A DNA stretch of 63,568 nucleotides from positions 1 to 63,568 of IMG/VR virus record IMGVR_UViG_3300021963_006637; one strand, written 5' to 3'. Below, one piece after another: positions 615 through 20,905 of the stretch. Under the pieces are notes generated by a model. That model searched no databases. It was not told where the DNA came from and saw only the letters and a program-made list of their open reading frames with translations. A program made the translations under genes and the position numbers. The stretch's first letter is position 1, and each line of letters opens with the position of its first letter. This DNA comes from a virus (lineage: Duplodnaviria > Caudoviricetes).

Positions 615-1361
615 TTAATATGAATTAACATAACCTATCAATTTATCAAAAACCTTTTTATTCCCTTCTTCTGTCAAATGGTAATCATTTAACATTTGTT
701 GGTTATTTATATTATTTTTTTCAGCCCAATTTTTCCAAATGTATTCTCTATTATCTTCATAAAACCCATTGTAATTTATCCTATCAATTAGGTCTTTTCT
801 TTTAATAAAAAAATCATTATCTACATTAAATATTGGGTTGAATATGTTTTCAATTGTTAATAATAAAAATTTACAACTTTTATTTTCTTTTTCTTTCTTT
901 TGAATTAATTTGTTTGCATTATACAAATCATTTATTAAAAAAAGAGGTTCAAATTTAGTTACAAAATCAAAGTAAGTTTGAGTATCATCTAAATTAAAAA
1001 ACCCATCACCACCTTCACCAAATTTTATTGATGCAGTAGTAATAGGCCCCTTTAAATAATCATCAAAACACCAAGTTTGATTTCGTTGTATCGATGAATC
1101 AAAATTTAAAAATTCATAACGATTGAACCCAGTTAATTGTAATATAATAACTGAATCATCTTCAAATGATGTTGATGCAAAATCTAATAATATTGAGTTA
1201 TTTCCTCTAGCTGAATATGAAGAGTCAATTAATTCCAATCCTAACTCTTCTGCTAATAATTCGGTGTATAATCTATTTTGAGGATAGTTGTATTGTGTTA
1301 CACACCAATTTTTCCAATCTAACGAAGTAAATGAGCAACCAAATGAATATAACCTTTTCAC
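615..1361 (-). CDS. SGNH/GDSL-hydrolase-like protein
   Basis: N-terminal FGCSFT (block I), ARGN (block II), C-terminal DYHLTEEGN (D-x-H block V). Confidence 0.6.
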   Translation of the reverse strand: MKRLYSFGCSFTSLDWKNWCVTQYNYPQNRLYTELLAEELGLELIDSSYSARGNNSILLDFASTSFEDDSVIILQLTGFNRYEFLNFDSSIQRNQTWCFDDYLKGPITTASIKFGEGGDGFFNLDDTQTYFDFVTKFEPLFLINDLYNANKLIQKKEKENKSCKFLLLTIENIFNPIFNVDNDFFIKRKDLIDRINYNGFYEDNREYIWKNWAEKNNINNQQMLNDYHLTEEGNKKVFDKLIGYVNSY

Positions 1362-1370
1362 TCTATAATT

Positions 1371-1967
1371 TTATCCAATATAGCAATTTAATTCATATTT
1401 ACCATTACCCATACCATATACTTGTATGTGTAATTGTTTTCTTTGTTCTTTACCATCTTTTGTTAATCTAATAGAAAATCTATTGGTTTTACCTTCAGAT
1501 GGTTTTTTTGGCCCAACTCCTATTTTTGTAAATGCATCATCATTATCAATTTCAAATCCTTGCTTTTCAGCCCACTCTCTAGCGGTTTCAATTGCAGATG
1601 TATATGAATTATGATAAACCTGAAACTTTGCTTCGTTTAATATATCTCTTAATTTTATCATTTTAGTTTCTTTTATTTCAGTTTGATATAATTCCAGTCC
1701 AGTCAAATCTCCTCTACCGATACTTTGAATAGATGCTTCAATTGATGTTAATTTATGAGTAGTTGGACTTTGTGTAAAGTTTGTTTCATCCCCTTGTCTG
1801 TTAACTTGCTTCAATGTAACATTATCTCCATTAATAGAATCAACTTTATAATATTTTTCAGGAAACAAACCTTTTAAAAGAGGATACCCATACACTACAT
1901 ATATATTTCCAACTTTTACGTTAGATTCTACTATTTTAGTCTTAAGTATATCTTTTAATCTCATCAT
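1371..1967 (-). CDS. Hypothetical two-module protein, probable head-packaged protein
   Basis: Leader MMRLKDIL...VE plus a second internal leader MIKLRDILNE (ATG at 1659-1661); C-terminal module ends YELNCYIG. Confidence 0.55.
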   Translation of the reverse strand: MMRLKDILKTKIVESNVKVGNIYVVYGYPLLKGLFPEKYYKVDSINGDNVTLKQVNRQGDETNFTQSPTTHKLTSIEASIQSIGRGDLTGLELYQTEIKETKMIKLRDILNEAKFQVYHNSYTSAIETAREWAEKQGFEIDNDDAFTKIGVGPKKPSEGKTNRFSIRLTKDGKEQRKQLHIQVYGMGNGKYELNCYIG

Positions 1968-1972
1968 TTTAA

Positions 1973-2236
1973 TTAAAATCCTAAAATAATTTCCTGACCA
2001 TCTATTTCAATCCAACGAATTTGAAGAGATAATAATTTTTTCAAATCAGCGCTCTCTATTCTCTCACGTCCATTTGGAACTTTGATATAAACTATATACC
2101 CATGAATACCATCGAATATCTCACCATGCTTACCACCTAATATTTTTTCAAAAGCCAATACTTGCTTTGCTTTAGTAACAGGTATTTCACCCAATTCTAC
2201 TTCAGATGCTTCAGTTATTAAAGATTTTAATTTCAT
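1973..2236 (-). CDS. Hypothetical protein with MKLKSLITE leader
   Basis: 87-aa ORF in a tightly packed array; leader shared with its neighbours. Confidence 0.6.
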   Translation of the reverse strand: MKLKSLITEASEVELGEIPVTKAKQVLAFEKILGGKHGEIFDGIHGYIVYIKVPNGRERIESADLKKLLSLQIRWIEIDGQEIILGF

Positions 2237-2247
2237 TTTGTATTATT

Positions 2248-3189
2248 TTACTTACCAAATGCTTTTATAATTCCTTGTGCAAACTTATTGTTTGGTTTAC
2301 CAACAATCGCAGTTGATATATCCATTCTATTACTTAAAGTTTTTGGCCCTTTTAATTTAAGAAATGCTAATAATTTTCTATCATCAATATTATTATCATC
2401 GATAAACTTTTGAACTGCTGATACTCTTACCCCAGTCAAATTACCTATTTCTTGTGCTTCCGATTCCTTAATCATTTTTGATAATGAAATTTTACCTTCT
2501 TTATTCAAAGCTTTCATATAAGGTTTATTATCAAATATAGATTGAATTTTATCCGCTTCCTTATGGAAACCATTCATTCTTAATGTGAATGCAATACCAT
2601 CAGCAGCTTCTACACCACTCCATCCCGATTCCTGTGATACACTAACTGCATAATTACGAGTATTATCATCATAATCCCAATACTCAGAACTATCTACTCC
2701 ACTCTTAATGGCTTTCATTTTTTCTGCGTAATTTGGGTCATCCATTCTAGGATAATTTACTTTCTTAGCCCATTCAGGTTTTCCTTCGATAGATGCTACT
2801 AATTCTCTTGCTTCATCATGAAAGTTTGAATCAGTTAAAGCCTCAACCGCTGCCTTATACATTGTTTTTACATATTCCTTATTACCTAATTTTTCAGGAG
2901 TAATACCAGCTTTTTCAGCACCGCTCTTAGCTTTTTTATTTACATTTGGATTACCTTGTCTTTTTGGTGTTTGAAATCCACCATCTCTCTTTGGTTCATC
3001 CTTTTTAGGTTCTTCTTTTTTAGGCTCTGATTTAGGAGCTTCACTTTTTTTACTTGCTGCACCAACAGTTGTGTTTTTCCCAGCAACCTTAACCTTAGTG
3101 GTATCTCTCATTTTATGCTTTTCTTTGTAAGCATCAAATGCCGCTTGCGAACCAAATTCAATTTCAGAAATAATACCTTTTAATTTCAT
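2248..3189 (-). CDS. Hypothetical multi-module protein with MKLKGIISE leader
   Basis: 313 aa; K/E/P-rich linker (EPKK repeats); internal leader-like ISLSKMIKE. Confidence 0.6.
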   Translation of the reverse strand: MKLKGIISEIEFGSQAAFDAYKEKHKMRDTTKVKVAGKNTTVGAASKKSEAPKSEPKKEEPKKDEPKRDGGFQTPKRQGNPNVNKKAKSGAEKAGITPEKLGNKEYVKTMYKAAVEALTDSNFHDEARELVASIEGKPEWAKKVNYPRMDDPNYAEKMKAIKSGVDSSEYWDYDDNTRNYAVSVSQESGWSGVEAADGIAFTLRMNGFHKEADKIQSIFDNKPYMKALNKEGKISLSKMIKESEAQEIGNLTGVRVSAVQKFIDDNNIDDRKLLAFLKLKGPKTLSNRMDISTAIVGKPNNKFAQGIIKAFGK

Positions 3190-3213
3190 CTTATTTTATA
3201 ATTTATTTAATTA

Positions 3214-4359
3214 TTAATGCTGGTGTAATCCCCCACATCCACAATCGTGATTTTCGTTACAACCACAATCATGTTCTTCTTTTACCGGTTCATATCCTCT
3301 TTTTTGAGTATCCTTAGTATCATATTGGTGTCCATGTTTTTTATCTCTTAAATCATCAAAATCTATGGTATCCAATTCGGGCCCATGCCCCATATCTTTT
3401 GTGTAACTAGATGATGCATGGTGCTTATTAAAATCTTTTTCAGCTTCTGATCCAGCTACCGATTCTCTTACAAATTTCCCATCTTTATCTGCTACATAAT
3501 AAGCAACCATATTGTATGAACCACCTCTTTCCTTTTCAAGTTTTTCTACTGCTTTCTTAGCATCTTTATATGATGAATACGAATCTTTAAAAACTCCTGT
3601 ACCTTGCCCTCTACCTTTATTATATCCTACAAAATACAAACCTTCGTTTACTGATTCTGCTTTTGAGGTATCAGTTTTTAAAAATGGCCCTCTTCTAAGT
3701 GTTCTAAAATCTATGTTTATTTCTTGTCCAAATAATTCCGTTGGTGCTAATACTTTTAGCTTAACAGTTTGTTTTTGATTATCTATGCCAACTAATTCAA
3801 AATCAACCTCACTGTGTTTCTTACCTTTTAGAGTTACATTCTTTCCTGTGATGAATTTATTAACTTTACCACTACTAACTGCCTGTGCTTCGTTTGTTGA
3901 TTCTTTAATTCTCAACTCATCCTGAACATCAGTTATTTCGGTATAATCCATATCCTTTAAATCATCTACAATTCTATTTCTAGATACATTAGGGTTTTTA
4001 GATACGGCTACTCCTACTTTCTTTTTTGTAAAAGGGCCTCCATTATCGTACAACTTCATAATTGCTTTAAAGTGTACATCTCTCTCACTTGTTTCCCCTA
4101 AATTTCTTGCATCATATGGGTCTACTACTGAACCAAAAGCTCCCTCTCCTTTTAAAACTTCTCTTATCACACTTTTGATAAATTCCCTAACGTGAGTTGG
4201 CAATCCTTTGTGTTTTGTAGAAGCAAAGTCTTTCGCATCAGATTTTTTCATTGAATCTGCTGCTTTTTCAACTTCTTTTGATGGAGCTTCCATATCGCCT
4301 TTTTGAGTCGCATGAACCATACCCATAAATCGTTGTTGTGCTTTTGATACTGCTGGCAT
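3214..4359 (-). CDS. Modular protein with DUF3008-like N-terminus (MPAVSKAQQRFMGMV) and ES(T/V)NE-delimited modules
   Basis: N-terminus resembles a small domain recurrent in T4-like phages; ESTNE, ESVNE and RESVA junctions; C-terminal HDCGC x2. Confidence 0.6.
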   Translation of the reverse strand: MPAVSKAQQRFMGMVHATQKGDMEAPSKEVEKAADSMKKSDAKDFASTKHKGLPTHVREFIKSVIREVLKGEGAFGSVVDPYDARNLGETSERDVHFKAIMKLYDNGGPFTKKKVGVAVSKNPNVSRNRIVDDLKDMDYTEITDVQDELRIKESTNEAQAVSSGKVNKFITGKNVTLKGKKHSEVDFELVGIDNQKQTVKLKVLAPTELFGQEINIDFRTLRRGPFLKTDTSKAESVNEGLYFVGYNKGRGQGTGVFKDSYSSYKDAKKAVEKLEKERGGSYNMVAYYVADKDGKFVRESVAGSEAEKDFNKHHASSSYTKDMGHGPELDTIDFDDLRDKKHGHQYDTKDTQKRGYEPVKEEHDCGCNENHDCGCGGLHQH

Positions 4360-4364
4360 ATTCC

Positions 4365-4637
4365 TTATTTTATAGATACTTTAAATTTTTGATCTGCTAC
4401 CGGCAAATCATCATCCCATTCTGGATCTTCTACGATATTAAATGAATCCATTTGGGTATCCATAAAATAAATAGTTCCTCCATTATTAGGTGAATTTATA
4501 TCATCTACAATAGCTTCCATAAACTTTGAACCTTTTATTAATTCAACTCCTCCAAATAATTCAGCTCCATCTAATAATTCAAAATTTTCATCAGTTACAA
4601 CTACTGAATTTTCTAATTTCCATTCCGATACTTTCAT
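4365..4637 (-). CDS. Small acidic hypothetical protein (paralog of 4639..4896)
   Basis: Shares SE(W/F)K(L/I)EN and F-x-IVED-x-E-(W/Y)-D-x-x-LP-x-x-x-QKFKV with its neighbour. Confidence 0.7.
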   Translation of the reverse strand: MKVSEWKLENSVVVTDENFELLDGAELFGGVELIKGSKFMEAIVDDINSPNNGGTIYFMDTQMDSFNIVEDPEWDDDLPVADQKFKVSIK

Positions 4638-4638
4638 T

Positions 4639-4896
4639 TTATTTTAGTTTTACTTTAAATTTTTGTTCCGATAACGGTAAAAATATATCATATTCAGCAT
4701 CTTCAACTATTTCAAAATTTTCTAATTGAGATGGAGTGAAATGAATTAACCTTTCAGAATCATCTACATCTATGAATAAAGCATCTATAAGTTTATCCCC
4801 TTCTGATGGACTGGTGCCATCAAATAATATAACCGATTCTGCTACTTCAGCCGTAATGGGTTTATGATTTTCTATTTTAAATTCTGATATTGTCAT
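4639..4896 (-). CDS. Small acidic hypothetical protein (paralog of 4365..4637)
   Basis: Same shared motifs; preceded by the ATATTTATA motif at 4919-4927. Confidence 0.7.
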   Translation of the reverse strand: MTISEFKIENHKPITAEVAESVILFDGTSPSEGDKLIDALFIDVDDSERLIHFTPSQLENFEIVEDAEYDIFLPLSEQKFKVKLK

Positions 4897-4918
4897 TATT
4901 TTTAGATTTTGAGTTATA

Positions 4919-4927
4919 TATAAATAT
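4919..4927 (-). promoter_or_regulatory. Recurrent upstream motif ATATTTATA (candidate phage late promoter)
   Basis: Exact copies upstream of genes at 4919, 8656, 21117, 44653 and 62078; near-copies at 9472, 10787, 36801, 45027, 51603, 54470 and 63102. Confidence 0.55.
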
Positions 4928-4939
4928 TGAATTGATTAA

Positions 4940-5632
4940 TTAAACAAATTTTTCATCAAATAATACTCCAGTTAATATAGCAAACCTATTATAATTATCC
5001 TTTTCTATTGGAGTTACCGAGTGTATAGGGTTATGTTTCATAAAATCTAATACTGCAAAATTACCCCACTTTGGTTGCTGTTTAAACTTATTTTGTAAAA
5101 CCAACTCACCCCCATAATCCTCTCCCCACTCTTCATTTAAGTAGATTAGGATATTACAAATCATCCTAGAGCTTCCACCATCCGCATGATCTTCAATAAA
5201 ACACCCTTTTGTAAAATTAGATACGTTGATTACATTTCGGTGGATTTCCCACGCTTTCTCTGATATCTCCTTACCATAACAATATTCTAATATTGAAATA
5301 AAAAGTTCTTTTACAATAGGAAATACATTTTGTAATATATTTGATCCCTCAGGATTATCATTATTTATAGTATAAAATATCTGCCAAACATCCTTTCCTT
5401 TATTTTTTTGGCTTAACCATAATTCTTTTATGGCCTCCGCTTCTTCAAAAGAATTAGTGGTCGTGCTTTCAATTTTATCCGAATATTCACCTAAATAAGA
5501 GTGAGTAACTCTAGTAAAATATTCCCTATTAAGAAGAGGTTTTAGAACATTTAATTTTTCAAAAAGTGAATTATCTATTTCAGAAAGATGGCCTAGATAA
5601 CAACCATTTTCCTCTATTTGTTTTTTAATCAT
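4940..5632 (-). CDS. 2OG-Fe(II) oxygenase (prolyl-4-hydroxylase-like)
   Basis: H-A-D, LIYLNEEW..YGGEL, distal HSV, RFAI. Confidence 0.8.
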   Translation of the reverse strand: MIKKQIEENGCYLGHLSEIDNSLFEKLNVLKPLLNREYFTRVTHSYLGEYSDKIESTTTNSFEEAEAIKELWLSQKNKGKDVWQIFYTINNDNPEGSNILQNVFPIVKELFISILEYCYGKEISEKAWEIHRNVINVSNFTKGCFIEDHADGGSSRMICNILIYLNEEWGEDYGGELVLQNKFKQQPKWGNFAVLDFMKHNPIHSVTPIEKDNYNRFAILTGVLFDEKFV

Positions 5633-6152
5633 GTTTTACCAACTGAACTTTTTTTCTGATGTTAGGGTATTTACTTAATCTTTTTCTAACAGCATCAACA
5701 TTTTTAGAAGAATCATCTACAAAATAAACATTATCATATCCTTGATTCTTTATTTCTCTTTCTATCCAATCCGCCTTTGATTCAGGATTGTTATCTCCTA
5801 ATGCTACAACAAATACATCTCTAATCCCACTATCTTTTATGAAATCATATACAGGTTTATAAGCACTTCTTGCAGTAAGGATATAAACTGCTCTGGAAGA
5901 ATCCTTTACCATTCTTCTTAGCAATTCAAAATATGCTTTAATTATTCGAGGATTTTTAACTTGATTAAAATCTCTAAAATCAAATTGGTCACCAGGTCTT
6001 TCTTTATAAACTGCATATTGTCCTGGTGTTAATTTTGATGTTTTACCATCTTTGTGAGTTATGTAGATATAAGAAGTTGTTTTGACAAGGGTATCATCAA
6101 AATCAAAAACTCTAAGTTTTTTATCTTCTACGAATAGGCTTCTTGCAATCAT
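5625..6152 (-). CDS. HAD-superfamily phosphatase (polynucleotide 3'-phosphatase/RNA-repair-like)
   Basis: Motif I FDFDDTL, motif II LTAR, motif III K, motif IV FVDDS. Confidence 0.75.
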   Translation of the reverse strand: MIARSLFVEDKKLRVFDFDDTLVKTTSYIYITHKDGKTSKLTPGQYAVYKERPGDQFDFRDFNQVKNPRIIKAYFELLRRMVKDSSRAVYILTARSAYKPVYDFIKDSGIRDVFVVALGDNNPESKADWIEREIKNQGYDNVYFVDDSSKNVDAVRKRLSKYPNIRKKVQLVKHD

Positions 6153-6463
6153 TAGCCATTAATTACTTTTTTGGTTCTACTTTTTTTAGAAAGCTCTTCG
6201 TTTTCTTTAGTAAGGTATTCCACCTTAACAGTTAAAGCGGCTACTTGCTTAGTTAAATCTAAAATCATATTTCTCATCTCATCCTTTTCTTTAGAAGATT
6301 GAGCTAAAAGGGCTTCTAATTTTGCAATGCGGTCTTTACAATCATGTCTGATAAAATCATCATCTCTATCTTTCTTCTGAGCTCTTTTCTCATAGAAACG
6401 AAATGCAGATGCTCCACCTAATACTGTTATCGCCGTAATGATTACTGAATAAATGTTTTCCAT
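6152..6463 (-). CDS. Membrane-anchored coiled-coil protein (holin/spanin-like architecture possible)
   Basis: One N-terminal hydrophobic helix (IYSVIITAITVLGG) followed by a heptad coiled coil. Confidence 0.5.
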   Translation of the reverse strand: MENIYSVIITAITVLGGASAFRFYEKRAQKKDRDDDFIRHDCKDRIAKLEALLAQSSKEKDEMRNMILDLTKQVAALTVKVEYLTKENEELSKKSRTKKVING

Positions 6464-6465
6464 AA

Positions 6466-7941
6466 TTAATATATTCCAGGTCTATCACCTTTTTTCATAG
6501 TATCCGCCCACATTTGAAACATCTTTTTAATATCAGATGGCAGTTGTTTATCTCTAATTGATAATTTTCCATCTGGTGAAATATGTGCAATTATTTTATA
6601 ATCACCATGCTCTTCCTCTGCTCTATTCCATATAGTTAAACCATTACCCATCCATCCAGATCCAATATCATATTTCTTAGCTTCAGTTCTAATCATTTTA
6701 CCGATTACAGGAGTTTCAACAATAGAATTAACAATATCAGTTAATCTTGCTTCGTTTACTGACTCATCAGCTGGATACTTGATACCAAATTTTGCAAGCG
6801 CTTTTCTTTGGTATTCTAACCCCTTTGCAGCTCTACTTAGATATTTTTTAAAAAATGCAAGCATCTCCTCTTTTGTATCAAATGCTTGTGACCCCCTAAA
6901 CTGTTTATCACTTAAATCAGTAGTCCAAAATGCGGCAGAATCTCTATCATAGTCATAGTATCCCACAGGTTTACCATTTAATAATATTTTACCATCTTTA
7001 GCAATTAGACTTTCGTTTACCGATTCAGATAATCTATATTTCATTCCTAAATGACCTTTACCCATATCTTTTACGGTAAACTTTTGGTGAAATGTAGAAT
7101 TTTGTGCCCCTTTTGGAGTAATATCTAAAATCCAACCATTACCATCTTTTGTTAGGAAATATGCATTTTTATCACTCGTCAAAGTTCTTACAATTGAATC
7201 CTTTGATAATCCTTCGTTTACGGATTCAGATTTGTTTAATTTAAAATAAATTTGATTCTTTAATTTTTGGAATGCATCAGTTGCTGCTTTTTGATTTCCA
7301 ACAAATCCCATTTTTAAACCAATTTCTTTTGAACGAACACCTTGTCTAGCTAATTTTTCAATTTGTGCCGCAATTGGTTTAGAAACTACTTGAGTCGGAG
7401 TTTCTACTGAAATAATATGTTTAAACTCTTCGTTTAATGTTTCCAATTTCAAACTTCTTTGTGCATTAGTTAAACCACTAATAATAGATTTTAATCCACC
7501 CTTAACTCCTTCGGTATCTCTATCCTTAACTCTCTTATCTAAAATTTTTGTGTTCATTTTTAGAAAGTTAATGATTGCGGTTTCAACTGCATTCCATTTG
7601 ATTTCCTCTTCGTTTATGGATTCATTTGTGTTTCCGTATTCATGATAGTTAGATGATGCTTGAGAAATAAAGTTTTCTGCATTAGTAATGTGATCTTGAA
7701 TCCAAGCAGGAATATCTTTTTCGTTTTCTCCCATCTTAGCTTTTAATTCAGTTGCCATCTTAATGATAGTATCTAATGAATTTTGAGCCATAGAAACTTC
7801 GTGGTCTTCTTCATTTACAACTTCTTCTTTAACCGAAGGTTGTGGTGCAAATGCTCTTACATATGGATTTGGAATTACCTGTCCAGGTTGAGCATTTAAA
7901 CTCTTTAACCCTAAATTATCCATCAAACTTTTCAAATTCAT
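6466..7941 (-). CDS. Polyprotein-like modular protein (leader plus 6 modules separated by E-x-x-N-E)
   Basis: Leader MNLKSLMD; junctions EVVNE, ESINE, ETLNE and ESVNE x3, spaced 60-87 aa apart. Confidence 0.65.
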   Translation of the reverse strand: MNLKSLMDNLGLKSLNAQPGQVIPNPYVRAFAPQPSVKEEVVNEEDHEVSMAQNSLDTIIKMATELKAKMGENEKDIPAWIQDHITNAENFISQASSNYHEYGNTNESINEEEIKWNAVETAIINFLKMNTKILDKRVKDRDTEGVKGGLKSIISGLTNAQRSLKLETLNEEFKHIISVETPTQVVSKPIAAQIEKLARQGVRSKEIGLKMGFVGNQKAATDAFQKLKNQIYFKLNKSESVNEGLSKDSIVRTLTSDKNAYFLTKDGNGWILDITPKGAQNSTFHQKFTVKDMGKGHLGMKYRLSESVNESLIAKDGKILLNGKPVGYYDYDRDSAAFWTTDLSDKQFRGSQAFDTKEEMLAFFKKYLSRAAKGLEYQRKALAKFGIKYPADESVNEARLTDIVNSIVETPVIGKMIRTEAKKYDIGSGWMGNGLTIWNRAEEEHGDYKIIAHISPDGKLSIRDKQLPSDIKKMFQMWADTMKKGDRPGIY

Positions 7942-7944
7942 TTT

Positions 7945-8649
7945 CTATCTATTTAAATGTTTTTTCATTTTCTCTTTATCTTCTTCGGAAGGTGCTCCAT
8001 TGATATATCCTCCTGGAAGTGTTAATCCTACTCCTGCCCCACCTGGAAATCCTTCTCTATGTGGTGCTTTTATTCCTAATGATTTTTTCTTATCAGATAA
8101 TCTTTGTAATGCGTTTTTCAATCTTTTCTGAATTTCCATTTTGGCGTCAGGAGATTTTATGCTATTAATTTTATCTCTTAATTTTTGTATGCGATTATTC
8201 AAATTTTGTATCTTCTCTCCCTCACTCTTCGCAGGCTCTTCGTTAATCTGCTCTTTCATTTTTTTCCAATCTTCAACTACTTTTCCGATAGCTTCCTTTA
8301 CCTGTTCCTTATTCAATCCAATCACTTTTACTTCTCCACTTTCGTTTTGATACATTGCATGTTTCAATCCGATTTCAGAAAAGTATTTTACTAATTTTTC
8401 ACCGATTAATTTTCCTTTCAATTCTTTTGTTTGAGGTAATCCTTGTGCAACACGTTGTGGCTCTTCTCCTTCTTCAGTTTTCCACTTACCACCCGCATCT
8501 TTATATTGTTTAGCCGCCCATCCATTTGCATAAGCAGAAGGGTAAACATCGAATTTCTTCTTTGCCTGAGAAACATAATACTGCCACTTTGAGGGGTCAG
8601 TAGGAACGTTTTTTTCTAAAAATAAAGTAATTGCTTCTTTTATATCCAT
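7945..8649 (-). CDS. Hypothetical protein with AKKKFDVYPSAYANGWAAKQYK..GGKWK domain and coiled coil
   Basis: Motif recalled from T4-like phage proteins; EQINEE junction. Confidence 0.55.
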   Translation of the reverse strand: MDIKEAITLFLEKNVPTDPSKWQYYVSQAKKKFDVYPSAYANGWAAKQYKDAGGKWKTEEGEEPQRVAQGLPQTKELKGKLIGEKLVKYFSEIGLKHAMYQNESGEVKVIGLNKEQVKEAIGKVVEDWKKMKEQINEEPAKSEGEKIQNLNNRIQKLRDKINSIKSPDAKMEIQKRLKNALQRLSDKKKSLGIKAPHREGFPGGAGVGLTLPGGYINGAPSEEDKEKMKKHLNR

Positions 8650-8676
8650 AATGTATATAAATATATGTTTTTTTGT

Positions 8677-9474
8677 TTAAGATGGTGGATTAAAGTCTTT
8701 TTTACCACTTTTATCCCAACTAACTCTGATTGGTTTATCACCATCAGTTTTTTCACCACCTTTTTTAGCATCACCACCTGCTTTTTGCGCAGCTCTTTTT
8801 CTTTTAACGAAGTTAGCTCTACCTTTCTTTCCTAATTTGTCTGCTGCAGCTGAACTTAAACAGGCTGCATACGCTTCTCCTTCTTCTCCTGCTCCACACT
8901 TACCAATTCTTTCACCTTTTGAATTATACCTATCCCATCCACCGCCATCTTTACCACCCCACTTACCTTTACCAAACCACTTACGAAGATCTTCATTTGT
9001 AGCAACATCTTGAGATGATGGTAATACGTTTAATCCCACCTTTTTACCCAAAAATATGGTAATCGGTGTAATTGGAATTGGAGATGGAATAAACTTAAAT
9101 GAAATTAAAAAAAGTATTTTTATTACATCAGTAGATTGGGATTTTAAGAATCTTTTTTCTGCCTGAGAAACTTCTTCCCCACTTATCATTCTTTGGAAAA
9201 TGTGAAGAGCGACTATTGTTTCTTTTTTCTCTCTATCGGATGCAGTTTTAAAATCATCCCAATTATGTTTTATAAAATTTTTTGTTTTCTCTAACCAATT
9301 TACCACTTTATTTTTTGCATTATCAATTATACCTTCATTAAAAGGAGATTTTGATTTAGTATCTTCTCCTCTTTTACGAGCATCTCTACCATCACAATGA
9401 GCCTTTTGTGAAAACCCTTTTGGATTATCACAATCTATGCTTTTTTTGTATTTGTTAGACCAACTCATATACAT
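8677..9474 (-). CDS. Hypothetical modular protein (IDCDNPKGFSQKAHC and EDLRKWF...KCG domains)
   Basis: Cys-containing mini-domains recalled from T4-like phages; modules separated by PFNE and ATNE; true start may be MSW at 9468. Confidence 0.55.
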   Translation of the reverse strand: MYMSWSNKYKKSIDCDNPKGFSQKAHCDGRDARKRGEDTKSKSPFNEGIIDNAKNKVVNWLEKTKNFIKHNWDDFKTASDREKKETIVALHIFQRMISGEEVSQAEKRFLKSQSTDVIKILFLISFKFIPSPIPITPITIFLGKKVGLNVLPSSQDVATNEDLRKWFGKGKWGGKDGGGWDRYNSKGERIGKCGAGEEGEAYAACLSSAAADKLGKKGRANFVKRKRAAQKAGGDAKKGGEKTDGDKPIRVSWDKSGKKDFNPPS

Positions 9475-9488
9475 AAATATAAAAAATA

Positions 9489-10238
9489 TTACAACTCCAA
9501 ATATTTTACGATATTACTCGCAATAATTGAATGACCTTCTAAAGATGGATGGTAATCATATCCGTTTTTCAATCCAAATATTCCTCCAGATGTAAGATAT
9601 CTCCCACTATTTACTAATTCTACAATCGTATCATATTGAGTATTCTTATAATAAAGTGGTATTAAATATTTTTGCAATGGATGTTCTTTTATATATCTAA
9701 TCTCTTCATTGTTGGGCCAAACTAATAAACCAAATTTTACCCCACTTGATTCCACCATTAAAGCAAAATTGTATATATTTTCCAGAATTACAGAAATAGT
9801 ATCATAAATCACATTATCAATAGTTTTATTTTCTTTTACTAAAAAATCTACCATATCTGCTTCACAATCCGCATATACTATTCTACCATCATTAGTTTTA
9901 AGAGTCAAAACATCTTTTGGAAATCCATTGACTTGAAAAATTATTGAATTAACATCGTTTAGAGAGAACTCATTTCTTTCTAACCCATCAATTAAATTAT
10001 TCAAAGCTGCCATATTACCACTACACTTTGAGTAATTAAGCTCTATTCCATTAAAATAATTTGAAACTTTCTTTGAAAATCTATTATCAAATATGAATTT
10101 CTCCTGAGCTTTATCTAAATATTTCAAATCCCACGGCTCATTAAATGGCCAATGAATTGTAGATAATTCAGATTCATATTGTAATCCTATACCATATGTT
10201 ATTGAACTTCCGGTAAATACAAATACTTTTCTATTCAT
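9489..10238 (-). CDS. SGNH/GDSL-hydrolase-like protein
   Basis: FTGSSITYG, SGN, C-terminal DYHPSLEGH. Confidence 0.65.
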   Translation of the reverse strand: MNRKVFVFTGSSITYGIGLQYESELSTIHWPFNEPWDLKYLDKAQEKFIFDNRFSKKVSNYFNGIELNYSKCSGNMAALNNLIDGLERNEFSLNDVNSIIFQVNGFPKDVLTLKTNDGRIVYADCEADMVDFLVKENKTIDNVIYDTISVILENIYNFALMVESSGVKFGLLVWPNNEEIRYIKEHPLQKYLIPLYYKNTQYDTIVELVNSGRYLTSGGIFGLKNGYDYHPSLEGHSIIASNIVKYLEL

Positions 10239-11227: not shown

Positions 11228-11450
11228 TTGTCTAAATAATAATCCGAATATATGCTTACCAATTTATGCTCGTATGTATTCAGAGATTTAACATTGAAAG
11301 TAAGATTTTCGACTTTGAAAGAAGAATGTGATGATAGGTTCGATTGATAAATAAAGTCAGGTAAATTTGTTAGAATCTGCATATCATTTTTATTAATAGT
11401 TGATGCATCTATACTGATTATTACATCATTTTCTAACGCTATTAATATTT
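11218..11450 (-). pseudogene. Out-of-frame C-terminal continuation of the GT2 gene
   Basis: The +1 frame is open from the A-runs near 11448-11461 (…LENDVIISIDAS…TYEHKLVSIYSDYYLDKCI*) to a stop overlapping the next ATG; no upstream start codon; fills an otherwise empty ~200-bp gap. Confidence 0.6.
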
Positions 11451-12373
11451 TTTATTTTTTTATTTAAGTTTAATTTAGTCTTTGGTTGTTCTCCATTTAT
11501 ATAATCAACGGTTTTACAATCAACATATATAGTAGAAACATAAGGTTCTAAAATTCTCAAAAGGTCTTCATTGCAATTTTTAACAATCAATCCAACATCA
11601 TATGTTTTTTTATTTCTCGTAGAAGCATTAATTCCCCACTTTCTAATTCTATTTAAATTAGAATTAGTTTCTATGATTCTTGTATTCTCCTTATGTTCTT
11701 CTGAAAATCTAGATGTTTTAGATACAAAGTGATAAACGATACTATCTAAACTTACTATCATTTTCATACCCAATAAATGCAACCTAAATAAGATATCATC
11801 ATCTTCACAAAACATTGGATTATATAAATTATCCATCCCGCCTATTGCCAAATAAGTTGCTCTATGCTGTGCCATAAAAAAAGCAGAACCTTCTGATGTT
11901 TGGTTTTGATATTGAGTTTGAGTTTCTTTTGTAAACTTTATAAGTTCTTCATAATTAACATCATCAAATTCTAACCCAAAGTCTTTTATAATTTTACCAG
12001 GTCTATTATGCCCAGCAAAAATAGGAGGTTCGATTGTAGTATAACTCACTACTACTCCTTTTTGTAAATGTTTATCTATGTTTTCTAACCAACCCTCTAG
12101 CATAACAATATCGTTATGACAGAATACAATGTATTCTTTTGTTGCTATTTCTGCACACTTATTAAATGTATCAGAGAAAGTTTTCTTTTCATCTGAATAG
12201 TAATACTTTAAATTCTCATCGTTTAAAGAATCTAACCATTCATGTGTCCCATCGTTTGAACCATAACTAACAAAACATAATTCTTCAGTTGGATATACTT
12301 CTCTAAATCTTTTGTAAAATTTTTTAGAATAATCTAAATTATTTTTTAATCCAACTAATGTAGAAATTTTCAT
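11426..12373 (-). CDS. Glycosyltransferase family 2 (probably frameshift-truncated)
   Basis: GSNDGT, FCHNDIV (DxD position), GGMD...FCEDDD, HFVSKTSR. Confidence 0.85.
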   Translation of the reverse strand: MKISTLVGLKNNLDYSKKFYKRFREVYPTEELCFVSYGSNDGTHEWLDSLNDENLKYYYSDEKKTFSDTFNKCAEIATKEYIVFCHNDIVMLEGWLENIDKHLQKGVVVSYTTIEPPIFAGHNRPGKIIKDFGLEFDDVNYEELIKFTKETQTQYQNQTSEGSAFFMAQHRATYLAIGGMDNLYNPMFCEDDDILFRLHLLGMKMIVSLDSIVYHFVSKTSRFSEEHKENTRIIETNSNLNRIRKWGINASTRNKKTYDVGLIVKNCNEDLLRILEPYVSTIYVDCKTVDYINGEQPKTKLNLNKKIKNINSVRK

Positions 12374-12376
12374 ACT

Positions 12377-13249
12377 TTATTTTTTCAATATCATTTCAAT
12401 TCTTTCCTCTAATGTATATTTTGGAGTATAGATGGAATTAAACAATGTTGGGTCACAAACTCTATATGATACACCAATTGGTTTTTCCAATAAATGTTTA
12501 ATTCCGTTTAGAGGAGTAAAGCCACTTATAGTAAACATTGTTTTAGCTAATTCATTAAATGGAGTAGCAATTCCACATCCTAAATTTAAAGCATCTACAT
12601 TAACATCATTATCAACAACAGTCATAACTGCTTCTACAATATCATCCATATGAATGAAATCTCTAACCTGAGTTCCATCTCCCCATATTTCAAATTCATC
12701 TACTCTTCTTTTAATTCTATCAATGAAAGAGGGGAATGGATATGTTAAATCCTGATCTTCCCCATAACCACTAAATGGTCTGAATACATAAACCTTCGTT
12801 CCAGATTGTCTAACAAATTTAGCCAAATATTCTCCGGTTAATTTAGACCAACCATAGGTGTAATCAGGTAATCTGATATCATCTAAATTAATATCACTTT
12901 CCTTTAATCTATATTTTGAATCCGGATGTTGTAAATATGTTGGATATGCCGCACTACTACTAAAATATACAACTCTTTTTTGTTTTGTTTTAATTACCCA
13001 ATTGAAAAATTCAGAATCAATTGATAAATCAGTTGCAACAGATAATGGTTCTTTTTCAATTGTTTCTCTACCACCTACGATTGCCGCTAAATGAATAATT
13101 AAATCAAATACTTCAGTTGATTGTTTGAAATAATCTCTACAATCATTTCCTTCTTTTAAATCTATTCCGACTATTTCATGTTTATCACCAAAGTATTTCA
13201 AAAACGATCTACCTACAAATCCTAAATGGCCTGTTATTAATATTTTCAT
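12377..13249 (-). CDS. NAD-dependent nucleotide-sugar epimerase/dehydratase (extended SDR)
   Basis: ITGHLGFVG, HLAA, SSSAAY, YGWSK (YxxxK), WGDGTQVRDFIH. Confidence 0.9.
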   Translation of the reverse strand: MKILITGHLGFVGRSFLKYFGDKHEIVGIDLKEGNDCRDYFKQSTEVFDLIIHLAAIVGGRETIEKEPLSVATDLSIDSEFFNWVIKTKQKRVVYFSSSAAYPTYLQHPDSKYRLKESDINLDDIRLPDYTYGWSKLTGEYLAKFVRQSGTKVYVFRPFSGYGEDQDLTYPFPSFIDRIKRRVDEFEIWGDGTQVRDFIHMDDIVEAVMTVVDNDVNVDALNLGCGIATPFNELAKTMFTISGFTPLNGIKHLLEKPIGVSYRVCDPTLFNSIYTPKYTLEERIEMILKK

Positions 13250-14115
13250 TTTATTATTTTATTATATAAATCAATATGTTTACTTGCTACATTTTTAGAA
13301 TCACATAATTCTTCTATATTTTCTGGCTTTTGTATTTCTATGTTTAATATATCTCCATTTATATCAATCAAATACATATATCCAGGAACATCACAGCACC
13401 ATCCTTCTAATGTAGTTCTACCCAATAAAATACCGGCAGTAAAATCCATATTCTTAACTACATTTTCAGTATCCCATCTCTTATCTATGTATTTTATATT
13501 TGGATGTTTAAAATCATATCTACTATCGCTCATTAGATATAAATCCCAATCTTTATCTATACAACTATTAACCAAATGTGATACTGATTTAAATCTAATA
13601 TTATCCAATACTTCTCCTACAAATATACCACTTTTCTTTTGATTTTTCAAGCTATTTTCGCCATTAAATCTACTTCTATCAATTGGATTGTATATCAAAG
13701 AAACTTTATTAGATGGAATGTTATATTCATTAATTAGCATATCAACTATTGGTTGCCTAATAGCAATATAATGTTGTATATTATCGTTAAGAATTGGGTC
13801 TTCACTTCTTATTTCAGAATGAATTATACTAATTTTAGGAATACTCGGAAATTTTTCTATGAAGAATAAATTAACTTGTGGCTGAGATGCTACAATTATA
13901 TCAAAATATTCGGATGTATCTAAATTACTTAAATCGATTTGCTTAACTCCTAAATCATATAATTTTTTTCTAACTATATCATTTTTATCTATCTGTCTAG
14001 CTGAAAACAATGTAATGTCGTGGCCTAATAAATGAAGTTCTTTTACCAGTTCATAGTGATACAATTCACTTCCACCTAATCCATTTACATTTAAACAACC
14101 TATAAGAATTTTCAT
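13246..14115 (-). CDS. GT-B fold glycosyltransferase (GT4-like)
   Basis: GGSE, GHDI, IYNPID, GRTTLEGW..DVP. Confidence 0.7.
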   Translation of the reverse strand: MKILIGCLNVNGLGGSELYHYELVKELHLLGHDITLFSARQIDKNDIVRKKLYDLGVKQIDLSNLDTSEYFDIIVASQPQVNLFFIEKFPSIPKISIIHSEIRSEDPILNDNIQHYIAIRQPIVDMLINEYNIPSNKVSLIYNPIDRSRFNGENSLKNQKKSGIFVGEVLDNIRFKSVSHLVNSCIDKDWDLYLMSDSRYDFKHPNIKYIDKRWDTENVVKNMDFTAGILLGRTTLEGWCCDVPGYMYLIDINGDILNIEIQKPENIEELCDSKNVASKHIDLYNKIIK

Positions 14116-14747
14116 TATAATTTTTTATAAATTGCATTAATTCCATTTGTATGAATCTTCGAATATCCATTGCCTAAAAGAGCATCTGCATTTCTTAAAA
14201 CACCATTATTATCGTTGTATTCGAAGATGATAAATAACGGTTGTAGATTATTCTCAACTACTTGTTTTAGTATTTCCAAATCCTTTCCTTCGGCATCAAT
14301 ACTAATTATATCAAACGATTTGAATTTAGATTGACTTAATATTGTTTTTAATGTAGAAGTTTTTACTATTTCGCTTTCATACCTTACATTCCTATTTCGT
14401 TCCCAATAATTTTTTTCAACTTCATTCAGAGTTGAAACTTGATTTACCCCTTCATTATGCAAAGATCCTAAAAAAATTGTAGTTTCACCATCTTCTTCTG
14501 CTATCGCAACATTAAAAACGTCAATATTATTATTATCAGAATACAATGAATTCAACGATTCAGCACAATTTGTAGTTGGTTCTATAAGAATACCACCCCA
14601 TCCTAAAGTTTCAATAAACATTCTTGAGTTAGAATATGTAATACCATCATTCGCTCCTATATCCAATAAAGTTCCTGGATGGTTAAACTCTAGTTCTTTT
14701 AATAAATTGAAGATTATACTATCTTCGCCATGCTGAGAATAATTCAT
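14115..14747 (-). CDS. FkbM-family SAM-dependent methyltransferase
   Basis: YSQHGED, LDIGANDGITYSNS, GILIEP, ISIDAEG.DLEIL. Confidence 0.9.
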   Translation of the reverse strand: MNYSQHGEDSIIFNLLKELEFNHPGTLLDIGANDGITYSNSRMFIETLGWGGILIEPTTNCAESLNSLYSDNNNIDVFNVAIAEEDGETTIFLGSLHNEGVNQVSTLNEVEKNYWERNRNVRYESEIVKTSTLKTILSQSKFKSFDIISIDAEGKDLEILKQVVENNLQPLFIIFEYNDNNGVLRNADALLGNGYSKIHTNGINAIYKKL

Positions 14748-15430
14748 TATTGTGAAATTAAATCATTTACCTTATTGCAATCATTGAAAAATTCAATACT
14801 ACTTTTATATAAACTATATTGTTGCTGGTCGTAACCTGCTACAGATGCAGCATCTACATATTGAGAATCTCTAACAGCTTTACCATTATCAGGATGAATA
14901 TGTTCAAATGTTACATCATTAAAGTATTTTATAATACCGCATGAATTACCTAAATCTAACCAGAAATTATCCGCATACATATGAACAAGATTAGTAGGCA
15001 CCATAAATCCTAAAGCATCTACTATATTTGAGGTTAAACATACGGCAGTTGGTAATTTAGCACCTTGTAGCAAATCGTTACCATACGCAATTCCTACACC
15101 ATTATTTTCATTAAAAAATTCAATAAACTTACTTTCCCATTTTGTTTGAATTACATGATCATCTCCAAAAAATGCAATATACTTATATGAATCTTTATAC
15201 TTAATCGCAATTTGATTGAGGGTTGGTATCATTCGGATTCTAGGATTCACTTCGTAAATAACACCGTCTCTTATTGGGTATTGATGATTATCATCATCGT
15301 CTAATGCAATACATAAATCACTAAATCCTTCGGTATTAATTTTCCAATTTTCAATAAATCTGTCTACATTTGGATACCTAACACTATTACCGCTTCTAGA
15401 TGGAACAATTACTAATATTTCTTTTTTCAT
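14747..15430 (-). CDS. GT-A fold glycosyltransferase (GT2-like)
   Basis: VIVPSR, LDDDD, FGDDH, HMYADN, EHIHP. Confidence 0.75.
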   Translation of the reverse strand: MKKEILVIVPSRSGNSVRYPNVDRFIENWKINTEGFSDLCIALDDDDNHQYPIRDGVIYEVNPRIRMIPTLNQIAIKYKDSYKYIAFFGDDHVIQTKWESKFIEFFNENNGVGIAYGNDLLQGAKLPTAVCLTSNIVDALGFMVPTNLVHMYADNFWLDLGNSCGIIKYFNDVTFEHIHPDNGKAVRDSQYVDAASVAGYDQQQYSLYKSSIEFFNDCNKVNDLISQ

Positions 15431-15435
15431 AAAAT

Positions 15436-16059
15436 TTATATTTCGTTATAAAATTGATTTTGTTTTTCTTGTCTTTCTATTTGTTTATGATGATATAGGG
15501 AGTATTTTTCATCTGCAGGAAAGTTTGTAAACGTCGTATATCCACTTATTCTTTCATGCACCTTTCCATACCATACTACTTCATCAGTATTTTTATAAAT
15601 TCTGGTCTGATAATCAGGCCAATTAACCCATCCTTTTTCATCAACTCTCCATCCCCATTTTTGAATATGTGAATCGGTTAATCCTTCAACGGTGTTTACT
15701 CTCGGAACAAAAATAATATCAACTTCATTCATAGTTAATATCTGCTTTATCCTTTCCAATAGTATTTCAGATGGCTCTTCATCTGCATCAATTTGAAAAA
15801 TATAATCTCCCTCACAATGTGATTTCAAATTATTTTTAAATGATGCAAAATCTTTATTTAGAGGAAATGATATTACCTTAATTTGTTTTTGAATATCATT
15901 TATTACATTAAGATAATCAATTACTTCTTTTGTAGCAGATTCAGAATCATATTGAATAACAATTTGATCCTCGCTATCTACACGCACGAGTAAAAAGTTA
16001 ATTAATGAAGTAACCTCTTTTAGTTCATTACAAACGGTTATAGCGTAGCTAATTTTCAT
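15436..16059 (-). CDS. Glycosyltransferase family 2
   Basis: ISYAITVCNE, FQIDADE, PDYQTRIY, VHE. Confidence 0.85.
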   Translation of the reverse strand: MKISYAITVCNELKEVTSLINFLLVRVDSEDQIVIQYDSESATKEVIDYLNVINDIQKQIKVISFPLNKDFASFKNNLKSHCEGDYIFQIDADEEPSEILLERIKQILTMNEVDIIFVPRVNTVEGLTDSHIQKWGWRVDEKGWVNWPDYQTRIYKNTDEVVWYGKVHERISGYTTFTNFPADEKYSLYHHKQIERQEKQNQFYNEI

Positions 16060-16908
16060 TTATATAGTTTTTATATATTCTTTTAAAATATCTCTAGGAT
16101 ACCAATTCAATCTTTCAACATCATTATCTTTTCGAGTAGCAATTCTGTAATTACCTTTAACAGAATCAATATACTTTACTTTCAAATCAGGATATTTTTC
16201 TTTAAACATTTCATATAATTGGTCGATACTATATACAATATTATTTCCCATTTCCCATCCTGAATGATTTATTAAATCAGTTTTACTCAACTTTACTAAA
16301 CCATCAACAACATCATCTATGTAAGTAAATGCTCTATATGAAAGTCCACGCATTGTTATTTCTATCTCCTTACCCTCCCTTATATTCCGTCTCCACTTTC
16401 CTATCACAGCTGCCATATGAGAATCAACTAATTCACCTGGCCCATATACATTATATAATCTTACAATAGTAACATCCAACCCCATCCCATCTCTATAAAA
16501 ATTACATAACTCTTCACCAATTCTTTTTGAAGATGAATATGGAGATATGGAATGGTGAACCGATGATGAACTTACAAATACTATCTTTGATTTATTTCTT
16601 AAAGCATATTCCAATACTTGTTTAGTTCCATCTACATTAACTGAAAATGTTAAATTTCTATGTTGGTATGATAATTCCAATCTACTAAATGCTGCTAAAT
16701 GAAATATCCAATCATATTGTTTGTCAGGGATATTCTCCATTGCTCTAACATCCCCGCCTAAAAAATGCGCACCGATTTCTTTTGGATTTTTTGCTTCAAA
16801 CCCAATTGAAAGATTATCTATGATATCAACTTCATTACCTTCTTCTAATAATTTTTTAGAAAGTGCATATCCAATAAATCCACATCCACCGGTAACTAAT
16901 ATTTTCAT
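16060..16908 (-). CDS. NAD-dependent nucleotide-sugar epimerase/dehydratase
   Basis: VTGGCGFIG, HLAA, YSSSK, RLYNVYGP, FTYIDDVV. Confidence 0.9.
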   Translation of the reverse strand: MKILVTGGCGFIGYALSKKLLEEGNEVDIIDNLSIGFEAKNPKEIGAHFLGGDVRAMENIPDKQYDWIFHLAAFSRLELSYQHRNLTFSVNVDGTKQVLEYALRNKSKIVFVSSSSVHHSISPYSSSKRIGEELCNFYRDGMGLDVTIVRLYNVYGPGELVDSHMAAVIGKWRRNIREGKEIEITMRGLSYRAFTYIDDVVDGLVKLSKTDLINHSGWEMGNNIVYSIDQLYEMFKEKYPDLKVKYIDSVKGNYRIATRKDNDVERLNWYPRDILKEYIKTI

Positions 16909-17382
16909 TTAGTCTTCGTTGTGCGGTTTACTATTTGTATAATGCCACGCCGAACCGCTTGGATATCCATATGTAGTTGATGTTGATGGGTTATATGTAT
17001 TTAAAATACCCGTACTACCTGTACCAAATGATGCTATATTTGGATTGGCAATTGTAATAAATCCGGTAGTTCCAGGTGTTGTTGTTACTACATATCCAGG
17101 TGTTGATGTTGTTCCAAATGAACCACTACTACAAGTTATTTTGTATGGATTATATGGGTCTATATATGGTTTATCAAATGGATTTGGATAATGTGGTTCT
17201 TGCCACACTGGAGTTGTATTTGGAGATGTGTTTGGTGTTCCAAATGGAAATGATGGAGATGATTCATCAGTAACTTCTGCTAACTTATCTTTTAATGCAT
17301 CCCATTGCTTTGGAGTTGGTGCGTATTCGTGGCAGGCTTCTACAAAACCTCTTAACCATATAACGTATTCTTTTGATGTCAT
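16909..17382 (-). CDS. Hypothetical protein with helical N-terminus and Pro/Thr/Ser/Gly-rich tail
   Basis: WLRGFVE..PTPKQW..LKDKL followed by low-complexity TTSTPG/TTTPG sequence. Confidence 0.65.
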   Translation of the reverse strand: MTSKEYVIWLRGFVEACHEYAPTPKQWDALKDKLAEVTDESSPSFPFGTPNTSPNTTPVWQEPHYPNPFDKPYIDPYNPYKITCSSGSFGTTSTPGYVVTTTPGTTGFITIANPNIASFGTGSTGILNTYNPSTSTTYGYPSGSAWHYTNSKPHNED

Positions 17383-17397
17383 AACCTATTTATTTTT

Positions 17398-17931: not shown

Positions 17932-17934
17932 TTT

Positions 17935-19170: not shown

Positions 19171-19172
19171 AA

Positions 19173-19505: not shown

Positions 19506-19513
19506 TTTGTAAC

Positions 19514-20902: not shown

Positions 20903-20905
20903 AAA

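Follow-up and report, generated by a model that had tools for sequence, protein, structure and literature searches.

Two open reading frames (ORFs) in a 63,568-base stretch of viral DNA (the window; IMG/VR record IMGVR_UViG_3300021963_006637) encode proteins of 491 and 381 amino acids (aa) that are organized as strings of small modules connected by a five-residue motif, E[ST]xNE, here called the joint. The window is that of a T4-type myovirus, as judged from its PHROG matches, which include DNA polymerase, clamp loader, helicase, UvsX, gp32, ribonucleotide reductase and baseplate parts. Its G+C content is 31%, and all 71 of the 71 ORFs chosen for the analysis are on the minus strand. The completeness of the record is estimated at about 34%, i.e. 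about a third of the genome. The closest DNA polymerase of a cultured phage is that of Microcystis phage Mel-JY01, with 50% identity to the window's enzyme. Those of the uncultured records G001 and G006 are 81% and 63% identical to it, respectively, and G006 is a complete relative of 252 kb. The two polyproteins belong to an uncultured T4-like water phage.

The 491-aa ORF (6466..7941; minus strand, as for all features described below) starts with a leader and a carrier, followed by five joints, and comprises six modules. Module 1 (aa 1-111, 7609..7941) contains the leader MNLKSLMDN..., a degenerate joint and a helical hairpin, DHEVSMAQ..., that is also present in cyanophages. The degenerate joint (EVVNE, aa 40-44, 7810..7824, GAAGTTGTAAATGAA) constitutes a sixth joint of this ORF. 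One relative (L003) has ETINE at this position, and contigs of other sequencing runs part from the window just upstream of aa 45, one of them (run X2) with ...ESVNE there. Joint 1 (ESINE, 7609..7623, GAATCCATAAACGAA) leads into module 2 (aa 112-171, 7429..7608), a 60-aa helical hairpin of family F0, the family that is shuffled most widely. Joint 2 (ETLNE, 7429..7443, GAAACATTAAACGAA) is followed by module 3 (aa 172-243, 7213..7428), an α/β domain predicted with a pLDDT of about 88-96. Joint 3 (ESVNE, 7213..7227, GAATCCGTAAACGAA) precedes the small β module 4 (aa 244-310, 7012..7212), and joint 4 (ESVNE, 7012..7026, GAATCGGTAAACGAA) precedes module 5 (aa 311-397, 6751..7011). Behind joint 5 (ESVNE, 6751..6765, GAGTCAGTAAACGAA) comes module 6 (aa 398-491, 6469..6750), in which a leader-like segment, ARLTDIVNSIVE, stands in front of an α/β core, KKYDIGSGWMGNG..., with pLDDT above 90. 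The same core is found as separate small genes with their own leader, e.g. an 83-aa gene with the leader MKSTRLTSILKE.

The AlphaFold model of the 491-aa ORF, calculated from a 53-row alignment, has a mean pLDDT of 65 and a pTM of 0.29. Overall, the model resembles beads on a string: the modules are predicted to fold separately, with no fixed mutual arrangement. Residues 98-109, 164-170, 240-258, 293-310 and 388-401 have pLDDT values below 50, and every one of the five joints either overlaps with such a segment or adjoins it. The disorder of the linkers was assessed on the model of this ORF, folded as a whole chain. The residue with which a module starts is identical behind a joint and behind the V-K-E-ending leader of the stand-alone genes.

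The 381-aa ORF (3214..4359) begins with a DUF3008 head and ends in a Cys/His tail; it contains two joints, and a third that has decayed. DUF3008 (PF11450, aa 3-57, 4189..4353) is a recurring N-terminal head of such polyproteins and is found in 38 of 47 aligned homologues; the S-SCSM1 homologue carries the annotation 'virion protein', which is the sole indirect hint at a presence in the mature head. The two joints are ESTNE (3889..3903, GAATCAACAAACGAA) and ESVNE (3643..3657, GAATCAGTAAACGAA), the latter being the commonest form of the 15-mer. The decayed joint reads ESVAGSE (aa 299-305, 3445..3465). At this site, the relatives P0265 and P0266 have ESVNE and an extra module, and P0264 has ESVTE. 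Extra modules are also present in P0264 and P0266 directly behind the ESVNE of 3643..3657. The C-terminal tail, HDCGCNENHDCGCGG... (3217..3273), is invariant in 6 of 6 aligned sequences and may be a metal-binding tag. It is found also in mid-chain in L008.

The earlier note on this DNA had placed seven 15-mers at positions 3643, 3889, 6751, 7012, 7213, 7429 and 7609, and all seven are present there on the minus strand. These are the only matches to the peptide motif in a six-frame scan, with five in ORF 6466-7941 and two in ORF 3214-4359. Residue shuffling of the 71 ORFs gives a mean of 0.76 matches and a maximum of 5 in 1000 trials, and the mean for the two cassette ORFs alone is 0.02. At the DNA level, the pattern GARWCNNTAAACGAA has 6 matches compared to 0.02 expected, a count reached in 0 of 100 shuffles; the seventh site falls outside the pattern owing to an ACA codon for Thr. 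The joints of the 491-aa ORF are spaced by 180, 216, 201 and 261 nucleotides (nt), as noted earlier, and the nine modules of the two chains are mutually unrelated, as no BLASTP match among them was found at E<0.1. The Asn codon is AAC in all seven motifs, which had also been pointed out, and this choice departs from the background: AAC accounts for 232 of the 1198 Asn codons in all 71 ORFs (19%), 10 of 40 in the same two ORFs outside the motif (25%) and 18 of 78 in Asn-Glu pairs of other genes (23%).

Such arrays are widespread, and their relatives in metagenomes run into the thousands. A scan of viral contigs resulted in 67 related loci with 56 non-identical ORFs that have 1-9 joints, always on the gene strand. 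Word-based searches at E<=1e-3 found 1567 homologues of the 491-aa ORF among 8000 scored and 2529 homologues of the 381-aa ORF among 5729 scored, nearly all annotated as 'hypothetical', and an exhaustive search resulted in 1116 clusters at 50% identity. At least one joint is present in 262 of the 355 homologues fetched. The 609 joints of these 355 proteins are ESVNE in 490 cases (80%), ESINE in 76 and ESLNE in 25, with Glu at position 1 in every case. Clustering of the 347 internal modules (median length, 72 aa) resulted in 90 families, of which 51 are singletons; the repertoire is large and unsaturated. The N-termini sort into a few leader or carrier classes. Up to 10 modules are present in L066, compared to 3-6 in the window ORFs.

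The exact 15-mer GAATCAGTAAACGAA occurs in at least 131 viral stretches among the matches listed. In 119 of these 131 stretches, the reading frame that encodes ESVNE stays open over 100 aa or more, and 58 contain two or more in-frame joints. None of 120 control stretches from cellular genomes with the exact 15-mer has two joints; these 120 matches, and single ones in G008 and G009, look like chance and were discarded. No array was found in any cultured phage of the collection searched, from which records very close to the window may have been excluded. The parts of the arrays found in cultured phages are limited to the DUF3008 head (in 81 records), module 1 (in 10) and a single carrier domain (in Mel-JY01).

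The content and order of the modules are not invariant among relatives, and the breakpoints are found at the motif, which agrees with the shuffling proposed earlier. The 56 polyproteins contain 87 module families in many different neighborhoods; family F0, to which module 2 of the window belongs, has 10 different families as left neighbors and 6 as right neighbors. Eight nearly full-length orthologues of the 491-aa ORF keep modules 1, 3 and 6, and all changes are at joints. Module 2 is lost in four of the eight and replaced in one, module 4 is replaced in two and lost in two, and module 5 is a divergent version in five. Extra modules have been added in three orthologues, and in two of the eight an extra module lies behind module 5. 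Relatives that are 97-98% identical to the 381-aa ORF have one or two extra modules right behind ESVNE and another at the decayed joint. Of 130 HMMER match ends, 73 lie no more than 5 aa from a joint (12% expected); the same is true of 16 of 85 match starts. In L065, module 3 is inserted within a conserved head-core-like protein.

A conserved protein encoded upstream of the protease was seen in L065 (7794-8474) and L067 (4007-5149). It has the N-terminal sequence NVTGN.DGY.TP.AF and a helical C-terminus, NRW..lK, and in some relatives cassettes sit between its two halves.

Contigs of public sequencing runs display similar changes. One contig of run X2 skips module 2, and contigs of runs X6 and X11 match the window across module 5 and its joint as far as 7026, beyond which they carry the alternative module of P0006 and P0008. 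The comparison was made at 90% likeness, and the shorter side of the X2 joint at 7014/7207 has 21 letters; because of this likeness and the short sides, the joints in these contigs are weak evidence. Uncovered stretches in X5 and X11 were set aside in the interpretation.

Recent events are visible in pairs of nearly identical genes. Despite their DNA identity of 97-99%, L051 and L066 differ by 150, 180 and 369 nt, and L047 and L058 differ by 180 nt. The sequences overlapping at these four breakpoints are 17-21 nt long, and each contains the 15-mer. A systematic comparison of gene pairs with at least 93% identity resulted in 14 distinct indels, the length of each being a multiple of three.

The joint is also conserved at synonymous positions. 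Out of 100 non-redundant joints, 35 match the master sequence and 34 differ from it by a single step. Val is encoded by GTA in 67 of 68 cases (background 44%), Ile by ATA in 19 of 22 (23%) and Asn by AAC in 79 of 100 (39%). The third base of Ser is relaxed (TCA in 60 of 93 joints; Fisher p = 2e-8 compared to Val). The conservation stops at the edges of the 15-mer, save for a G at the next base. Changes away from the master sequence are transitions in 82 cases and transversions in 42. The codon pattern goes beyond what amino-acid selection alone would give, and shared descent explains a part of it.

A TAA stop in the +1 frame results from every joint with GTA-AAC or ATA-AAC (e.g. 7213-7227 in the window). 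This stop may be a by-product, or it may be the reason for the fixed third base of Val and Ile. A functional role for it was considered and dropped.

The motif fits the rule of the T4 head protease gp21, which cuts after Glu in L/I-x-E (PMC9026906), and to this extent the earlier suggestion of a maturation site agrees with the data. All seven sites in the window have Glu at P1, and P3 is V, I or L at six of them and T at one (ESTNE, 3889-3903). Among the homologues, P3 is V, I or L in 591 of 609 sites. A gene for the gp21-type protease, Peptidase_S77, was found in 4 of 5 and in 3 of 4 larger relatives searched, G006 included. The predicted capsid-protein propeptide of the relatives ends in a similar way, QL[VL][SD]E/A[ST]ATGT, and so do the protease C-termini, ..GVINE/S, ..GVIKE/S, ..PVNE/S and ..PLQE/S (boundaries shown by slashes). 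The internal proteins of T4 are targeted to the head by leaders of 10-19 residues (PMC9026906). The leader-like N-termini found here (MKLKSLITE, MKLKGIISE, MKKLxxLLKE and others) have a resemblance in pattern only to such propeptides.

The gene order in relatives places the polyproteins among head genes. In L043/G002 the S77 protease gene is followed, in this order, by a 274-aa ORF and the genes for a 467-aa polyprotein, S21, an acidic scaffold-like protein and gp23. In G006 the protease is positioned between a 353-aa two-joint polyprotein and further ORFs with leaders, among them that of a 294-aa DUF3008 polyprotein with two joints and a homolog of window ORF 2248-3189, the latter located between the protease and the scaffold gene. 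In both L043 and G006, genes with joints flank the protease and are found together with the acidic scaffold-like protein and gp23. The head-gene region of G006 contains homologs of window ORFs 2248-3189 and 3214-4359.

Neither sequence nor structure comparisons suggested a function for the modules. The 491-aa ORF has no Pfam and no PHROG match, and the 381-aa ORF matches, via its DUF3008 head, only PHROG families without an assigned function. Pfam searches of both ORFs and 100 aligned homologues found only domains of unknown function, with no effector or enzymatic domain and no MPTase-type peptidase among them. A PDB sequence search gave 0 matches for either ORF. With the predicted structures, Foldseek found no match in the PDB at E<=0.001, BFVD matches were to uncharacterised proteins only, and the ESM Atlas had no usable match for modules 3 and 6. 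In a wide VIA-align search, the helical hairpin of module 2, a generic one, was the only part matched, at Z of 8 or less. No Rfam match was found at E<=0.1 in the window between 1000 and 9600.

Taken together, we think it probable, if well short of certain, that both ORFs encode capsid-cargo polyproteins that are cut by the head protease, and that the joint DNA serves as a recombination joint. The N-terminal leader or carrier would take the chain into the core of the assembling prohead. An amphipathic leader with hydrophobic-x-Glu at its end, a DUF3008 head or some other conserved carrier domain would play this part, and behind it would follow small, independently folded modules of 50-100 aa. 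During head maturation, the exposed ESVNE linkers would be cut after their last Glu by the gp21-type protease, so that the head would come to contain several small proteins from each chain. These would presumably leave together with the DNA, as the T4 internal proteins do. The 15 nt of the joint, chiefly the 3' part GTAAACGAA, are nearly identical between joints and could act as a short homology at which phage recombination or replication slippage deletes, inserts or exchanges modules in frame. The identity of the joint DNA may be a cause of recombination rather than only its result. A broader proposal, which we put forward more tentatively, is that these are in-frame cassettes that need no recombinase, in which 15 nt are under dual selection, as a protease site and as DNA homology, and which make up an open-ended array of injected counter-defence or take-over factors; a single gene of this kind would be the protein-level counterpart of an integron. 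The modular build and its breadth, the shuffling with breakpoints at the joint, the codon bias and, for relatives, the head-gene neighborhood are shown by the data, and targeting, ejection and any anti-host role are what we propose on top of them.

Several observations weigh against this interpretation. The expectation of the earlier note that breakpoints fall on the 15-mer holds in part: among the 14 recent indels, the strict 15-mer is present at only four, six are on joint-like sequences, and four have no useful overlap. The joint-like group consists of three rows with an ESVEE variant, two with 7-10 nt ending in AACGAA, and one tandem duplication bounded by AACGAA. The p-values for the codon bias overstate independence because the counted joints are partly orthologous. 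In an all-against-all BLASTP comparison, 198 of the 1005 internal endpoints are within 5 aa of a strict joint (6.7% at random), but 583 are 30 aa or more away from one, a test that is diluted because of repeats in the long N-terminal carriers and degenerate joints. In L004, module 6 is a separate gene directly after the stop codon of the polyprotein and lacks the typical carrier, so a carrier is not always needed. In Mel-JY01, a carrier adjoins the protease gene, with neither cassettes nor ESVNE. PHROG found neither the prohead protease (S77) nor a capsid gene in the window record, which is about 34% complete, and the enzyme is therefore assumed from the relatives. ESVNE is far more specific than the known requirement of gp21, so something besides a protease may constrain the motif. 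Since no module matches a known fold or family, the word 'effector' is a guess. Finally, cleavage, and the packaging and retention of the products, are what we infer for every member of the family.

The specificity of the motif would be accounted for if the chains stayed uncut, as multidomain, beads-on-a-string virion or early proteins, with ESVNE being a linker left over from the pasting of modules at the DNA level. Synonymous sites, which are invisible to a protease, are conserved, and uncut polyvalent proteins do occur in phages (PMC5512222). Nevertheless, we consider uncut chains unlikely, as position 3 is V, I or L and position 1 always Glu, the joints lie in predicted flexible linkers, modules start where the leader ends in the stand-alone genes, and the genes flank the protease gene in relatives. 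It is decidedly improbable, in turn, that the chains are cut as parts of the assembly machinery, like T4 gp22, gp67 and gp68, and are degraded and expelled before DNA packaging. The position of the genes between the protease and the scaffold and capsid genes in relatives would agree with such a role, as would the conservation of module 1 out to cyanophages, the module 3 cassette within the conserved protein encoded upstream of the protease, and the cutting of T4 core proteins into several pieces (PMC9026906). However, whole modules come and go between genes that are 98-99% identical, a turnover that is unexpected for an assembly machine, as are 90 internal-module families with 51 singletons. 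The modules are also predicted to fold alone, and the window copies are located among non-structural genes.

The role of the DNA can be questioned separately. Indels might occur anywhere, with the losses of whole modules being the ones that survive, and the codon bias might stem from selection on translation at a critical site or from a recent common origin of the joints. All 14 recent indels are in frame and four lack useful microhomology, the third base of Ser is free, the changes around the single master 15-mer are mostly transitions, which fits descent, and virion-type genes favor AAC more (39% in the polyproteins of relatives). This explanation is rather improbable, because all four simple indels in two pairs with 98-99% identity have overlaps of 17-21 nt that contain the 15-mer, and six more events are on joint-like sequences. 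Moreover, the frequencies of GTA and ATA at the joints are far above any background (GTA for Val before Asn elsewhere, 38 of 63), and Asn-Glu pairs elsewhere have AAC in only 18 of 78 cases. The synonymous conservation could also hint at a role for the nucleic acid itself, and the modules could be separated with no protease, by a 2A-like skip, by self-cleavage at Asn or by an RNA-level processing signal in GUAAACGAA; every GTA-AAC and ATA-AAC joint has the +1-frame stop. This is very improbable, because the NPGP-type 2A signature is absent, Rfam has no match at E<=0.1 in 1000-9600, the conservation is confined to the 15-mer, and the relatives encode, alongside these genes, a protease whose cutting rule fits. 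A 2A-like skip, an intein and Asn self-cleavage were considered and dropped. So was a homing-endonuclease target, as Pfam and PHROG found no such gene adjacent to the arrays.

The surroundings of the two genes contain further candidates for head cargo. Three leader-bearing ORFs (1371..3189) have the N-termini MKLKGIISE, MKLKSLITE and MMRLKDILKTKIVE, which end in hydrophobic-x-Glu. An internal second leader, MIKLRDILNE, is found within these ORFs; ILNE is encoded by TTAAACGAA (1632-1643) in an ORF neighboring the 381-aa gene. None of the three has a PHROG match. On the other side, two more probable head-cargo ORFs (7945..9474) have a sub-threshold DUF5872-like match and a KKSIDCDNPKGFSQKAHC N-terminus, and both match opposite ends of an 823-aa three-joint ORF in G006. 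That polyprotein (L333, G006 215563-218034) carries a P-loop (GGAGSGKG) domain, so some arrays may hold enzymes besides tiny modules. The span 4365-6463, between the two cassette ORFs, contains ordinary unrelated genes. Two adjoining ORFs in it (4365-4637 and 4639-4896, 90 and 85 aa) seem to be tandem paralogues, with alike starts and ...FKV.IK ends; neither has a family match.

Other parts of the window and of the head-gene cluster of relatives also deserve mention. Ribosomal protein S21 is encoded within the head-gene cluster, between the cargo and scaffold genes, in L043 (10325-10606) and L211 (7345-7572), and also in Mel-JY01. S21 has been called core to pelagimyophages (PMC7029224), and the available text of the same paper contains nothing on 'internal protein' or 'prohead'. 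Genes for S-adenosylmethionine decarboxylase and a 2OG-Fe(II) oxygenase (56-454 and 4940-5632) recall traits reported for freshwater SAR11 (Fonsibacter) myophages. The hints about the host conflict: besides the SAR11-like traits, the nearest cultured polymerase is that of a Microcystis phage, and one homolog is labelled as belonging to a Bacteroidota bin. Runs X6-X19 (30-41% of words) were set aside in the habitat assessment. The region 11426-21097, with a long series of glycosyltransferase, nucleotide-sugar epimerase (two paralogues), methyltransferase and MazG genes, resembles a sugar-modification island. Two adjoining paralogous ORFs of about 408 aa (24610-25833 and 25818-27047) match phrog_12517, with weak likeness to a methyltransferase, and a third, weaker copy is at 36866-37924.

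Among the closest known counterparts are the internal proteins of T4 and the T-even phages (IPI, IPII, IPIII and Alt), from which gp21 removes a capsid-targeting sequence (PMC9026906, PMC12373910). Both systems are found in T4-type phages, have short leaders (here leader-like N-termini) ending in hydrophobic-x-Glu and go with a gp21-family protease (here one encoded by relatives), and in both the proteins are small, unrelated and fast-evolving, with the leader alone in common (PMC9026906, PMC12373910). The three internal proteins of T4 all inhibit restriction enzymes (PMC12373910). Each internal protein, however, has one gene and one leader, whereas here up to 10 modules are chained by a repeated five-residue joint, have no similarity to PHROG families of known function, and would be packaged and injected by analogy. 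Repoila et al. are said to have found in 1994 that the internal-protein loci of T-even phages are polymorphic, and reportedly proposed that the leader DNA aids exchange. The genes for T4 gp22, gp67 and gp68 adjoin that of the protease, and each of these proteins has several L/I-x-E sites at which it is cleaved (PMC9026906), but they are conserved assembly parts, unlike the swappable arrays described here, with which no sequence similarity was found.

Polyvalent proteins, with 2-15 distinct domains per phage polypeptide (PMC5512222; Iyer, Burroughs, Anand, de Souza and Aravind, 2017), also combine many unrelated domains in one chain, as do the 3-6 modules here and up to 10 in L066, and are thought to be delivered with the DNA. 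Their processing into units has been proposed, and an analogy with viral polyproteins was drawn by the authors (PMC5512222). Their domains are large and mostly enzymatic with an embedded MPTase (PMC5512222), whereas the modules described here are tiny and of no known family, and the chain has no peptidase domain; a cut would have to be made in trans, and the motif for it is a single, uniform one whose DNA is conserved as well. PeSL cassettes, in turn, have short conserved DNA motifs flanking variable units in T4-type phages that were proposed to be recombination joints (PMC2839356, PMC4122927). They are intergenic regulatory elements (an early promoter and a stem-loop terminator) and move whole genes (PMC2839356, PMC4122927), in contrast to the joint, a coding, in-frame sequence of 15 nt that moves modules of a protein inside a single gene. 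The arrays are like those of integrons in being expandable and in having unrelated units joined at a repeated sequence. The units, however, are not promoterless genes but modules of a protein in a single reading frame, and the exchange would be by general or microhomology recombination. The term 'integron-like' in the earlier note is thus an analogy only: no integrase or recombinase was matched in the 71 ORFs (PHROG, Pfam), there is no attI or attC, and no imperfect palindrome resembling attC surrounds the coding 15-mer, where conservation ends at the edges. A literature search of publications, excluding their supplements, found none on such arrays or with 'ESVNE'.

If the joints are cut, ESVNE would be a simple flag by which thousands of head-loaded small proteins could be recognized from metagenomes alone, and the flagged proteins of abundant aquatic T4-type phages would probably be delivered at infection. 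So far this class of head-loaded, delivered proteins is known almost only from the three internal proteins of T4. The arrays would also provide a concrete, testable case of a short coding sequence that is selected both as a peptide and as DNA, and would show how delivered proteins can diversify quickly with no dedicated recombinase. The combination of leader and linker would constitute a natural grammar for loading foreign proteins into T4-type capsids.

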